A DNA stretch of 31,162 nt, taken from IMG/VR virus record IMGVR_UViG_2582580984_000003; one strand, written 5' to 3'. Within the stretch, counting starts at the first letter, position 1; each line of letters starts with the position of its first letter. The stretch comes from a virus. Lineage: Duplodnaviria; Heunggongvirae; Uroviricota; Caudoviricetes. The position numbers were made by a program, and so were the translations under genes. The notes under the pieces were generated by a model, which made no database searches, had not been told where the DNA came from, and saw only the letters and a program-made list of their open reading frames with translations. Positions 20,832-31,162 of the stretch are shown piece after piece.

Positions 20832-21038
20832 CTTCATTTTCACTTTCTTAAATCTAACGACAGATGGCTAACATTTAAGTATTGTGAAATATTATCAAAT
20901 GTAATCATCATTGATTTACAAAAGATACATTTTGCCCCGAAAGGATTTCTGTCAGAAACATCAAAAGATGATGTTCTATACTGAGAACCATGGCAACACG
21001 GGCATCTAAAGTGAATATGGTTTGTAATATTTTCTACC

Positions 21039-21251
21039 TCAAAGTGCCACTACATGAACAGCTGCAGGGCCTTTAGGTCCGTTCTCAATACCAAATTCGA
21101 CTTCCTGATTCTCAGTTAACGTTTTGAAATCGTTGCTCTGAATAGCTGAGAAATGCACAAACACATCTTTGCTACCATCTTTCGGCGTGATGAAACCAAA
21201 ACCTTTTTCAGGGTTAAACCATTTCACTAAACCAGTCATTTTGTTAGACAT
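21039..21251 (-). CDS. cspI: Cold-shock protein (CspA family, CspI-like)
   Basis: 70 aa from ATG at 21251; RNP1 KGFGFI and RNP2 VFVHF motifs; ~360 bp AT-rich upstream leader typical of csp genes. Confidence 0.9.
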
Positions 21252-21614
21252 CATTATTACCTTTTGAAGAAGTTAGCCCTTGGGCAGAATGGTCCGAAAA
21301 AAAATATCAGAGAGAAAAACCAACAAGGAAATCTCAAGAGGTACAAATAATAAAATTATAACAATGACTGCTTCAGATAATTTTGTAACAAACCAGAACA
21401 CCATTAACGCATGATTAACCAACCATAGCAAGGATTACTTTTGTAAAGAAAAACACACGAATGAAACAATAGCTTTATTTATTAATAAAACGTGTCATTC
21501 TGTCTAATGACCTTTTATCTTACCCTTAAGATTTCAAGGATTTTGACTCATGGAAGAGTCCTTTTTATTTAAATTTCACATTCAGCGCTAAAAATAATCC
21601 GATTTAATATTAAT

Positions 21615-24455: not shown

Positions 24456-24929
24456 ACAGCGAATCAGATCAAATAAAACGCACATTTGTTAACATTTACA
24501 CAAAGTCTGCGTGGGATATTCTGAAAGAATATCCATAATGTGGAGAGAATCTATTGAAGTGCATGGTGCCGGGTGCCTCCCGGTGAATTCAGTACCAGCA
24601 CCTGAATCCGCGATTATCCCATATACCTACTCGCTGATTGCCCCTCCGCACAGGGGGATTCACCATGCCAGTTTCTTTTAACAAACTCCCCGCAAACCAG
24701 AGAACAGTCAACCGCCTGAATTGTGAAGTATTTAAAAATTTCTCCCGCTAACTGATACCCGGCTAACAGTCTGGCGTTTTCTTTTTCAGCAACGGGAAAG
24801 CAACAACCACCACACCCGCCACCAGCACACCGTCAGCCAGCACTGACATTATCCGGCTGCTGCAATGCCATTCACAAAAACAGTAAGCAATCACTTTTTA
24901 CCGTAACAGGTGATAATCCAGATATGTAT

Positions 24930-25393: not shown

Positions 25394-25470
25394 TGGCGCG
25401 CTGTACTGGATTCGAACCAGTGACCGATTGCTTAGAAGGCAATTGCTCTGTCCGGCTGAGCTAACAACGC
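25394..25470 (-). tRNA. tRNA-Arg (anticodon UCU)
   Basis: 77-nt cloverleaf read from the minus strand: acceptor GCGTTGT/ACAGCGC, D-stem GCTC/GAGC, anticodon stem ATTGC/GCAAT with loop CTTCTAA, T-arm ACTGG-TTCGAAT-CCAGT, 3' CCA. Confidence 0.9.
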
Positions 25471-25570: not shown

Positions 25571-25646
25571 TGGTGGCCCTTGCTGGATTTGAACCAGCGA
25601 CCTGGCGATTATGAGTCGCTCGCTCTCACCACTGAGCTAAAGGGCC
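25571..25646 (-). tRNA. tRNA with anticodon CAU (ileX/ileZ-like tRNA-Ile2; Met not excluded)
   Basis: 76-nt cloverleaf: acceptor GGCCCTT/AAGGGCC, anticodon loop CTCATAA, T-arm GCTGG-TTCAAAT-CCAGC, 3' CCA; very similar to E. coli ileX as recalled. Confidence 0.85.
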
Positions 25647-28390: not shown

Positions 28391-28642
28391 TTATTCTTCT
28401 GCAAAAGCTGAAAAGCCTGCTTTTATTCCGATCTCTTTCAGTGCCTGTAATGAAGTGACAAACTCACCTTCGCGCAAGATAAATCCGTCTGTCACTCGAC
28501 CATCCACAAAATTAATTAACGCAGCCCCATTCTTTCGCAAACACATAATGCGGTAATGACTAACAAGATTTCCATTTTCAACGCACACCGCATAGAGGCC
28601 ATCTTCACAAAAAATTTTACGCAGTTCTTCGATGTTCATCAT
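28391..28642 (-). CDS. rem: Rem-like small prophage protein
   Basis: 83 aa; ATGATG start with GGAAGGA RBS; matches the Qin Rem protein as recalled (unknown function). Confidence 0.65.
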   Translation of the reverse strand: MMNIEELRKIFCEDGLYAVCVENGNLVSHYRIMCLRKNGAALINFVDGRVTDGFILREGEFVTSLQALKEIGIKAGFSAFAEE

Positions 28643-28760
28643 CAGAATCCTTCCGGATAATTAGCTCTCCCCTTTAAGGGACCATCCCTCTTATCCCTGC
28701 GCGCTACTTAAGTATTTTTGATTCTATTCCGGCACCGTCCAGAACTTCAAACGCGTTGAA

Positions 28761-28789
28761 AATAAAAACAAAAACCCGCCGAAGCGGGT
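28761..28789 (-). terminator. Intrinsic terminator downstream of hok
   Basis: Minus-strand ACCCGC-TTCG-GCGGGT hairpin followed by TTTTTGTTTTTATTTT. Confidence 0.65.
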
Positions 28790-28858
28790 TAAGTGCGGGT
28801 GCGTTGAGGATGCCTGCCACATCAGAGGTGGCGAGGGATTTCTCCCTCGCCGGGTCTC

Positions 28859-29014
28859 TTACTCCTCAGGTTCGTAAGCTGTGAAGACAGCGACCTCCGT
28901 CTGCCCGGTTCGGATTCGTACCTCGCAGAGGTCTTTCCTCGTTACCAGTGCCGTCACTATGACGGTTAAACAGATGACGATCAGGGCGATTAACATCGCC
29001 TTTTGCTGCTTCAT
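28859..29014 (-). CDS. hokD: Hok/Gef-family membrane toxin (HokD/RelF-like)
   Basis: 51 aa from ATG at 29014 with AAGGAG RBS: MKQQKAMLIALIVICLTVIVTALVTRKDLCEVRIRTGQTEVAVFTAYEPEE. The ORF-track in-frame 5' extension is not used. A GGCGAGGGA..TCCCTCGCC hairpin sits just 3' of the stop. Confidence 0.9.
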   Translation of the reverse strand: MKQQKAMLIALIVICLTVIVTALVTRKDLCEVRIRTGQTEVAVFTAYEPEE

Positions 29015-30085
29015 AGCCTGCTTCTCCTTGCCTTTCGGCACGTAAGAGGCTAACCTACATGTGTCTAGCATGAAATTGGCCTCAGATTAATGTTAAGCGT
29101 CTTGCAGGACGCGTAATGTTAACTGGGGCTTTTCTCTATCTGCCGTTGGTGTTCATGCCCGAGGCAGATAGCCTCAAGCACCCGCAGCCATTCTACTTAA
29201 CTACCGTTACCTCGCCAATGTGAAATCAGTCAGAAAGGCGATCCATAAGAACAATAGCAAGACAATAAATCGCCATTACAGCCGTAATAGCCAGCGCACA
29301 TTTGAGAACCAGCACCACAACCTCCTGTATTGGACGTACACCAGTCCTGATGAATATGAGGCTGTCTCGTCAGTGATTCAATACAACTATTGGGTATAGT
29401 TTCTCTGATTTTTTCTGTGGAAATGGGGCTCAACCACTAGTCATTTAATACGCAAAGTCCGACACAAGCTAACCTTCTAGTCCGCTTTGAGCGATGAGCG
29501 GACATCGACTTTAAAAAACACTAGCGTAAACAGGAAGGCAGTTATGATCCAGAATGAATACTCACTACCTCTTTGACTAAAATGATGATAAGTGCTCATT
29601 TGATGATAATTAACATGTTTTTTAATAATTAAAGCTAACATAATAATTTAACGAATATTCTTTGCTTTCTGAATAATAAACCTAGAGCAAACTAAATGAC
29701 ATCACCAGGACTTAACACCATAGGGTTGGTTTCGAATATTCTTGGCGTGATATTAATTTTTCTTTTGATTACCACAATCCTCTCATAATGAGGGAGTGTC
29801 ACTGGCATTGGAAGATAATACGCAATTGAATGATGGAACTACTGTCAAATAAAAGAACTTAAAAACAAAAAAAGAAGTATATTTACAATATCTTTCGTAT
29901 ACTTAGCGTTAGCATTAATGTTCACGGATTCGTATTGCAATTCTTATCAATTCTACCTGACTTGCAAATTTAATTGACTCGTAACATCTGCAACCCCACA
30001 TTTAACAAAAAGCAGATAGAATAATTGAAGGATATAGTCTAGCTAAGTTAAATGTGGGTGCGTTTTATTTTACATCAATATATTT

Positions 30086-30928
30086 TTAATTTACAAAACC
30101 GAAATCCAGACACTTTTTATAGCTGTTAGGGTGAAGATCTTTAAGGTCTTTTAAAAAACCTTTATCAAGTGTTAAAATCAAAGTGTCTGGCATATTTAGA
30201 GAAATAACTATTAGAAAGTCAAATATGTCATTTTTTCGTAATTTACGACCATTTTTATATGCATCCTCAACCTTGCTCATTAGAAAGCTCAACGAATTCT
30301 TAGTAAGCCCACGAGCGCCAGAAATCCCCTCCTCCATTTCTTTCAGGTAGTTATCAACTACTGATTCGTGTTTTTTTTTGCAGGCAAGGGATATTGGATT
30401 CTCCATATATTTTTTAAACTTTTTATCAAAATTATCATTTTTTATACTATCATACAGATTTTTGAGTCTGTCTTGGCTTCCGGAAATGTTAACTGTGTCA
30501 GTTTTAATCATATGATAGTTGACATGAAAAGCATGTAGGAGTCCGATAAGCATGGTTTCAAAAGCTTTCAAAGCTGATTGCTGCTCATTTCCATTAATAT
30601 ATCCATTCCGCAACTCATCTTTAAAGAAGTCTAAAATTAATTCCATATTAGATTCAAGTAGAGTCTGCACAAGACTAAGTTGACTTTGATTTTGTACATC
30701 GTTATCAAACTTGTATCCATCTTCTCTAATAACCTCAAACAAACCAGAGACAACCAGTATGAGTATGAACCTATAAAACTCAGCCTCTCTAGATATTTTT
30801 AGTGCTCTAACATTATCAATAATATCTTTTACTTCGTCTATTTTGTCTGAAAAATGCAACCTATAAAGAAATTCATTTGAGATTGGAGTATAGACTGGCC
30901 CCCTGAATCTCCAGACAACCAATATCAC
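30086..30928 (-). pseudogene. AT-rich ORF of unknown function, 5' end interrupted by IS2
   Basis: 280-codon frame with low GC; its first 13 codons (30891..30928) are encoded by the IS2 terminal sequence, so the native 5' end is displaced. No recognisable domain. Confidence 0.45.
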
Positions 30929-31162
30929 TTAAATAAGTGATAGTCTTAATACTAGTTTTTAGACTAGTCATTGGAGAGCAGATGATTGATGTCTTAGGAC
31001 CGGAGAAACGCAGACGGCGTACTACACAGGAAAAGATCGCTATTGTTCAGCAGAGTTTTGAACCGGGAATGACGGTCTCCCTTGTTGCCCGGCAACACGG
31101 TGTGGCAGCCAGCCAGTTATTTCTCTGGCGCAAGCAATACCAGGAGGGAAGTCTTACTGCTG
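30891..31162 (+). mobile_element. IS2 (IS3 family) left end, truncated by the window edge
   Basis: Sequence from TAGACTGGCCCCCTGAATCTCCAGACAACC through the insC start matches the IS2 left terminus as recalled. Confidence 0.9.
30982..31162 (+). CDS. insC: IS2 transposase OrfA (InsC), N-terminal part
   Basis: ATG at 30982; translation [60 protein letters not shown]; runs off the window end. Confidence 0.9.

Follow-up and report, generated by a model that had tools for sequence, protein, structure and literature searches.

A hokD gene in a lambdoid, Qin-like E. coli prophage very probably belongs to a complete hok/mok/sok type I toxin-antitoxin cassette

In the window, i.e., the whole 31,162-nt stretch of DNA analyzed here, the minus-strand ORF at 28859..29014 encodes the 51-aa peptide MKQQKAMLIALIVICLTVIVTALVTRKDLCEVRIRTGQTEVAVFTAYEPEE. 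This product is a small membrane toxin of the Hok/Gef type with the typical length of about 50 aa, as can be deduced from its match to Pfam HOK_GEF (PF01848; E = 3e-23, 81.6 bits at a cut-off of 22) and from a tblastn search in which all 51 residues are identical to HokD of E. coli K-12. Scores against the NCBIfam Hok models all stayed below the respective curated cut-offs, with 48.5 bits versus 73 for the Hok family toxin model NF007279. The latter is evidently tuned to a different Hok subgroup, and the Pfam membership is unambiguous. In RefSeq, the gene in the identical DNA is named hokD, and neither a sok nor a mok feature is annotated there. An earlier note on this DNA had already described a HokD-like gene with ribosome-binding site, 3′ hairpin and terminator, all of which are borne out (AAGGAG at 29029..29024, stem-loop at 28851..28830 and terminator stem at 28790..28773). 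Listed in the direction of the hok mRNA, the features assigned at the locus are as follows, with the two Shine-Dalgarno sequences, the sok promoter and the Tyr47 codon read directly from the sequence.

29190..29218, minus strand: hok/mok promoter, TTGGCG, 17-nt spacer, TAGAAT; 9/12 in a consensus scan; −10 hexamer and flanks conserved in 933W, Rac and hokC
29172..29183, minus strand: tac element at the mRNA 5′ end, GGGUGCUUGAGG; pairs with fbi in the predicted minimum free energy (MFE) and centroid structures
29125..29131, minus strand: ucb (anti-SD) box, from predicted folds; 16/16 identical to 933W
29080..29083, minus strand: mok Shine-Dalgarno sequence GAGG, 8 nt 5′ of the ATG at 29071
28859..29071, minus strand: mok ORF, 70 aa in the hok frame, MLDTCRLASYVPKGKEKQA followed by Hok
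29028..29056, plus strand: sok promoter, TTGCCT (29028-29033), 17-nt spacer, TAACCT (29051-29056); 29/29 identical to the stretch upstream of 933W sokW
29063..29139, plus strand: predicted Sok antisense RNA of about 71-77 nt, from the annotated ends of sokW and sokC; 5′ tail, hairpin and U-run
29024..29029, minus strand: hok Shine-Dalgarno sequence AAGGAG, 9 nt 5′ of the ATG; invariant in all aligned hok loci
28859..29014, minus strand: hok toxin CDS, 51 aa, identical to HokD, from Pfam, tblastn and RefSeq naming
28874..28876, minus strand: Tyr47 codon TAC within UACG (28876..28873), the reported TadA A-to-I site of the hokD mRNA (Tyr to Cys)
28830..28851, minus strand: 3′ stem-loop GGCGAGGGA-GAAA-TCCCTCGCC, 9 bp with a GAAA loop, from predicted folds
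28797..28809, minus strand: fbi (fold-back inhibition) element CCUCAACGCACCC; predicted to pair with tac; 13/13 identical in 933W and Rac
28764..28790, minus strand: intrinsic terminator of the hok mRNA, stem 28790..28773 of 7 bp with 5 GC pairs, followed by the T-run TTTGTTTTT

In K-12, 6% A-to-I editing of the hokD mRNA recodes a conserved C-terminal Cys position (PMC12214031). The stem-loop downstream of the stop codon is presumed to shield the 3′ end after mRNA processing, by analogy with plasmid R1 (PMC9841398). The 3′ untranslated region of hok with 3′ hairpin, fbi and terminator (28769..28850, minus strand) also shows a sub-threshold Rfam match to the Salmonella Hfq-binding sRNA isrK (25.7 bits versus a gathering score of 50, E = 0.004), which is probably due to a generic two-hairpin resemblance. 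Across 28600..30100, further RNA families were considered, and isrK, rsmX and ceN48, all of them sub-threshold, were set aside as fortuitous or as reflecting the general likeness of hairpin-terminator structures.

A 701-nt segment around the locus recurs with 100% identity in many E. coli chromosomes, in which the gene order is dicB, DUF1391, HTH repressor, Cro/CI, YdaT, replication-region genes, a 340-aa hypothetical protein and hokD, followed by rem, a hypothetical protein, ydfU (DUF968), rusA, antiterminator Q, tRNA-Ile and tRNA-Arg. From cro onward, all genes run in the hok direction.

The 170 nt 5′ of hok represent a full hok leader. Rfam family RF01794 (“sok”) matches at 29009..29183 over its full length (model 1-157) with 115.3 bits (gathering score 59, E = 7.7e-26), and since the matching strand is the hok-sense one and the match stops at the hok AUG, the matched part is the hok mRNA leader with the Sok-complementary region. 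Model position 1 coincides with the predicted start of the hok mRNA at about 29183. Within this leader, a mok frame with its own Shine-Dalgarno sequence runs across the hok start, an arrangement suggestive of translational coupling. Its start at 29071 corresponds column for column to the annotated starts of mokW from 933W and mokC from K-12, with the annotated hokW and hokC starts both falling at 29014 in the multiple alignment. The mok product is assigned to PHROG 251, ‘MokW-like host killing’ (7.7e-33), and the exact 70-aa sequence was found on at least 1000 contigs. As mok is in the hok frame in the window as well as in 933W and K-12 hokC, initiation at 29071 would yield a 70-aa extended Hok, as for mokW and mokC. 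In the Rac-type phage MN652886 (locus L007, 1631..1844; 93% identical), one extra base 5′ of the hok Shine-Dalgarno sequence shifts mok out of the hok frame, which fits the view that it is the translating of mok that counts and not the Mok sequence.

On the opposite strand, an antisense sok gene can be proposed that is encoded in cis, overlaps the mok start and has a promoter of its own. A simple consensus promoter scan did not call this promoter because the weak −10 hexamer TAACCT matches at just three of six positions; instead, it was accepted because it is identical to the sokW promoter. Position 29063 on the plus strand corresponds to the annotated 5′ end of both sokW (933W) and sokC (K-12), whose annotated 3′ ends correspond to 29133 and 29139, respectively. 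The RNA is predicted to fold into a 15-nt single-stranded 5′ tail, a long hairpin (29078..29130) and a U-run, with energies of −28.7 to −30.5 kcal/mol.

The predicted 420-nt hok mRNA (29183..28764) has a folding energy of −174 kcal/mol (z = −7.0), and none of 100 shuffled sequences was as stable. The MFE and centroid structures of the full-length mRNA agree in predicting long-range pairing of the mRNA ends, with a 12-bp helix between tac (29183-29172) and fbi (28797-28809), about 375 nt apart, whose duplex energy of −21.5 kcal/mol was reached in no more than 3 of 500 shuffled 3′ untranslated regions. The same helix is retained in K-12 hokB by two compensatory changes (U7-A to C7-G and G12-C to A12-U). 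In the full-length fold, the mok Shine-Dalgarno sequence (29083..29080) is predicted to be sequestered by part of ucb (29125..29128). When the 3′ end is trimmed to 28820, predicted pairings are those of tac with ucb (29125..29131) and of the mok Shine-Dalgarno sequence with dcb (29046..29049). Assuming 3′ ends at 28826 or 28812, tac is predicted to reside in a local metastable 5′ hairpin. The post-processing state thus varies with the assumed 3′ end, and the tac/ucb pairing is not present in all 3′-truncated folds. For the R1 hok mRNA, three states have been described (PMC9841398) which are the counterparts of the folds predicted here.

Identical or near-identical copies of the locus are found in sequenced phages, i.e., mEp460_ev081 (100% identical at the locus, from the phage collection), HannyBb, Tritos and Stx phages. 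Among the characterized systems, the hokW/mokW/sokW locus of the Stx2 phage 933W and the Sakai prophage Sp5 (AF125520; Takada et al., 2021, PMC8621323) shares 94% DNA identity over 416 nt, and the same value was obtained with VT2-Sakai; in both the 933W and the VT2-Sakai record, hokW, an in-frame mokW of 213 nt and an antisense sokW are annotated. The 933W locus likewise comprises an in-frame 70-aa mok, a 51-aa hok and a Sok of about 71 nt with the extended hairpin, and is identical to the window in the sok promoter (29/29), tac with the 5′ hairpin (48/48), ucb (16/16) and fbi (13/13). It differs, however, in five C-terminal Hok residues (TAYEPEE in the window, VDYESEK in 933W) and in 7 of 71 Sok positions, which lie at 29067-29079 in or next to the single-stranded 5′ tail opposite the mok start and would limit cross-talk between paralogous copies. 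Terminator and flanks also differ, and the 933W locus is found close to the genome end (58.4-58.8 kb of 61.7 kb) next to other genes, whereas in the window it sits between replication genes and rem/ydfU/Q.

With the more distant hok/mok/sok (parB) system of plasmid R1, the window locus shares the complete order of promoter, tac, ucb, mok Shine-Dalgarno sequence, Sok target, dcb/sok promoter, hok Shine-Dalgarno sequence, hok, 3′ hairpin, fbi and terminator, as well as the conserved tac core GCUUGAGGCU and the block AGCCUCUUAC / CAAGGAGAAG. In contrast, hok identity amounts to only about 53% (83/156), the Sok hairpin in the window is about 20 nt longer, mok of the window is in the hok frame, and the carrier is a prophage and not a plasmid. 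The K-12 hokC/mokC/sokC (gef) locus resembles the window in its in-frame mok of about 70 codons, the equivalent Sok 5′ end and the conserved leader, but is without the 18-nt extension of the Sok hairpin and carries IS186 only 20 bp past the stop codon.

Every sequence element is present, aligns to its annotated counterparts and is predicted to pair as required. Hence, 28764..29218 is very probably a type I toxin-antitoxin cassette of the canonical hok/mok/sok kind, complete and belonging to the hokD/hokW subtype, in the early-right region (replication to nin/Q) of a lambdoid, Qin-like E. coli prophage. As such, it is an ordinary, already-known system. The Sok RNA, the mRNA ends and the 3′ processing are predictions for the window locus, and 3′ processing, mok-hok coupling, cleavage by RNase III and the trigger are transferred from experiments on R1 and Sp5. 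By this analogy, an mRNA of about 420 nt would be made from the promoter at 29218..29190, with tac at its extreme 5′ end pairing with fbi near the 3′ end in an inert form in which ucb holds the mok Shine-Dalgarno sequence. Slow 3′ trimming would strip off fbi, allowing tac to pair with ucb and exposing the mok start region, and ribosomes proceeding from the mok ATG at 29071 would read across the start of hok, thereby allowing Hok to be made. Convergent transcription from 29063 on the plus strand would supply the short, unstable Sok RNA, which is expected to pair with the mok start region, resulting in block of translation and cleavage of the duplex. Once the supply of Sok ends, for example, upon loss or induction of the prophage, Hok would be made and depolarize the inner membrane. 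For Sp5, it has been established that HokW is toxic and is neutralized by sokW expressed from its own promoter, which defines a type I system, that a sokW promoter mutant releases HokW toxicity and that sokW's activity as an antitoxin depends in part on RNase III and Hfq (PMC8621323).

The earlier note had regarded hok as an orphan or remnant and the relB-relE-hokD (relF) operon of K-12 Qin as the normal state. A toxin gene left without cognate antitoxin after loss of a relBE module would be in line with the RefSeq annotation, which gives hokD alone at this place and no sok or mok, and with the lack of RelE- and RelB-like sequence, likewise pointed out in that note and corroborated by tblastn searches with the K-12 proteins over the whole 31-kb window (best E = 5.6 and 1.1, respectively); accordingly, an operon with relB and relE directly upstream of and co-transcribed with hokD is not present in the window. 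Nevertheless, this interpretation is refuted by the full mok/sok leader, i.e., the very sok/mok arrangement that the note itself had named as decisive against it. The note had suspected, as an alternative, a Sok-like antisense RNA on the plus strand around 29015..29130 and a control function of the in-frame ATG at 29071, and in these two respects, though not in its orphan reading, it was right, as a putative promoter at 29028..29056 precedes a predicted RNA at about 29063..29133 and the ATG is the mok start aligned with mokW and mokC. Also the alignment with complete hok/sok loci that it had proposed retrieved all of the elements concerned, i.e., mok, sok promoter, tac and fbi.

The comparison with K-12 is equally at odds with an orphan. 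The K-12 Qin locus encodes a 100% identical Hok in a shared rem-ydfU neighborhood, with the order rem-hokD-relE-relB at the equivalent place, and is near-identical to the window from 29028 through hok, 3′ hairpin, fbi, terminator and rem, whereas the sequence upstream of 29028 is unrelated, so that a relE fragment upstream of hok, also considered in the note, is not found. Homology breaks 14 nt before the hok ATG, within the −35 hexamer of sok, and in K-12 relE ends 71 nt upstream of hokD; only the hok Shine-Dalgarno sequence is kept there, while hok promoter, tac, ucb, mok and sok have all been lost. As the K-12 homology starts only inside the sok −35 box, it is the K-12 hokD that is a rearranged copy. 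In line with this, published work (PMC12214031 and PMC7232551, citing Pedersen and Gerdes, 1999) states that IS elements, point mutation or rearrangement have inactivated the hok loci of K-12 and that canonical components are missing from them. Among 5426 complete E. coli genomes, promoter, leader and hok 5′ end of the window are present in 4035 (at a coverage of at least 80%, which is out of reach for a K-12-type locus) and the relE-hokD junction in 1165, the complete form thus being about 3.5 times commoner; the wider 701-nt context occurs in 1887 of these genomes. The relation assumed in the note is therefore inverted, with the K-12 relBE-hokD arrangement being a derived, rearranged and truncated form and the complete form being common and ancestral-looking.

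Accepting a complete hok/mok/sok cassette, its role has to be considered. Chromosomal hok loci with all elements are reported to show no post-segregational killing, according to a summary of these findings in a preprint (bioRxiv 10.1101/2025.08.07.668861), and therefore structural completeness is no proof of activity. That the cassette is structurally intact but physiologically inert in a chromosomal prophage, with neither a killing nor a stabilization phenotype, is nevertheless unlikely, considering the identical and near-identical copies kept in phage genomes with all regulatory elements conserved, the toxicity, antitoxin activity and twofold higher phage release associated with the 94%-identical hokW-sokW, and the toxicity of the unedited HokD peptide on overexpression (bioRxiv 10.1101/2025.08.07.668861). 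Somewhat less doubtful, albeit still tentative, is a function chiefly as an induction-coupled lysis helper, with antiterminated early-right transcripts and those from a promoter of a small ORF upstream (about 29381..29353) colliding with the sok promoter, so that Sok vanishes and Hok aids lysis. As hok shares the early-right direction and Sok is convergent, read-through upon induction could indeed extinguish Sok by interference. Such a role would agree with the co-orientation of hok with cro, replication, rem, ydfU, rusA and Q genes, with the absence of a strong terminator between the upstream ORF and hok and with findings on Sp5, where after mitomycin C treatment sokW is gone and HokW appears at the inner membrane in a RecA-dependent manner, and where phage release is halved without the hokW-sokW locus (PMC8621323). 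The control would be indirect, as a LexA box is absent near the locus. However, for the window locus this scenario is purely inferential, the different genomic position of the 933W locus implies that early-right read-through cannot be the general trigger, and a 5′-extended read-through mRNA would have tac away from its 5′ end. Direct SOS control had been considered separately and was rejected, with no LexA-box-like site (CTGT-N8-ACAG, at most one mismatch) within 800 nt and a window-wide count of such sites at chance level.

The biological weight of the locus is small, since its toxin-antitoxin family is among the best studied and experiments have already characterized a copy with 94% identity. 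It rather holds a lesson for annotation, since a RefSeq entry with “hokD” only, omitting mok and sok, together with K-12 as reference gives a complete cassette the appearance of an orphan.

Directly 5′ of the hok promoter, an unannotated ORF for the 29-aa hydrophobic peptide MLVLKCALAITAVMAIYCLAIVLMDRLSD was noticed (minus strand, GTG at 29315, stop codon ending at 29226). Its Shine-Dalgarno sequence AGGAGG (29326-29321) lies 5 nt 5′ of the start, its stop codon is found 8 nt before the −35 box of hok, and upstream a promoter-like sequence is present (TTGAAT, 17-nt spacer, CATATT; 29381-29353, minus strand), with CATATT (29358..29353) being the sole invariant hexamer among 63 distinct upstream variants. 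The ORF is conserved, yet also unannotated, in four phages but absent from the 933W locus and is thus not required for hok/sok. In IMG/VR contigs retrieved by a DNA pattern inside the ORF, by which 20 nt were fixed, the hok ATG follows 210-212 nt past the stop codon in 91 of the 99 evaluable cases. None of the 27 distinct variants interrupts the frame; variable sites number 6, 6 and 14 at the three codon positions, and the codon variants comprise 13 synonymous and 14 conservative non-synonymous ones, a substitution pattern that fits a coding sequence. Searches against the Pfam, PHROGs and NCBIfam libraries did not recognize the peptide. That this ORF (29315..29226) is a functional partner of the hok subtype, either as a second small membrane peptide or as a source of read-through modulating the hok/Sok balance, appears quite improbable; if true, a subset of lambdoid phages would carry a three-gene module.

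Farther upstream, the final part of the window (30896..31162, plus strand) is one end of an insertion sequence of the IS3 family, resembling IS2, with an orfA product that matches Pfam HTH_Tnp_1 (1.4e-16). The insertion cuts off about 65 N-terminal codons of the gene for the 340-aa hypothetical protein, which is intact in other strains (equivalent to 30086..31108). The exact IS junction was sought in the complete-genome collection and not found, the best coverage being 86%. The disrupted gene (30086..30895, minus strand) gave no match in Pfam and PHROG searches; flanked by the replication genes and hok, it sits where accessory (‘moron’) genes are typically found. Downstream of hok, Rfam matches above threshold were obtained for the sRNA STnc100 (114 bits; 24507..24697, minus strand) and for a cspA-type thermoregulator leader (110 bits; 20993..21409, minus strand), marking a prophage cold-shock gene comparable to Qin cspB. 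Two tRNAs (25397..25470 and 25574..25646, minus strand) follow the Q antiterminator according to Rfam, annotated as tRNA-Ile and tRNA-Arg in the identical RefSeq record. Just past the hok terminator, a promoter-like sequence (TTGAAG, 18-nt spacer, TAGAAT; 28721..28750, minus strand) precedes the rem start at 28642 by about 80 nt and may be the promoter of rem itself.
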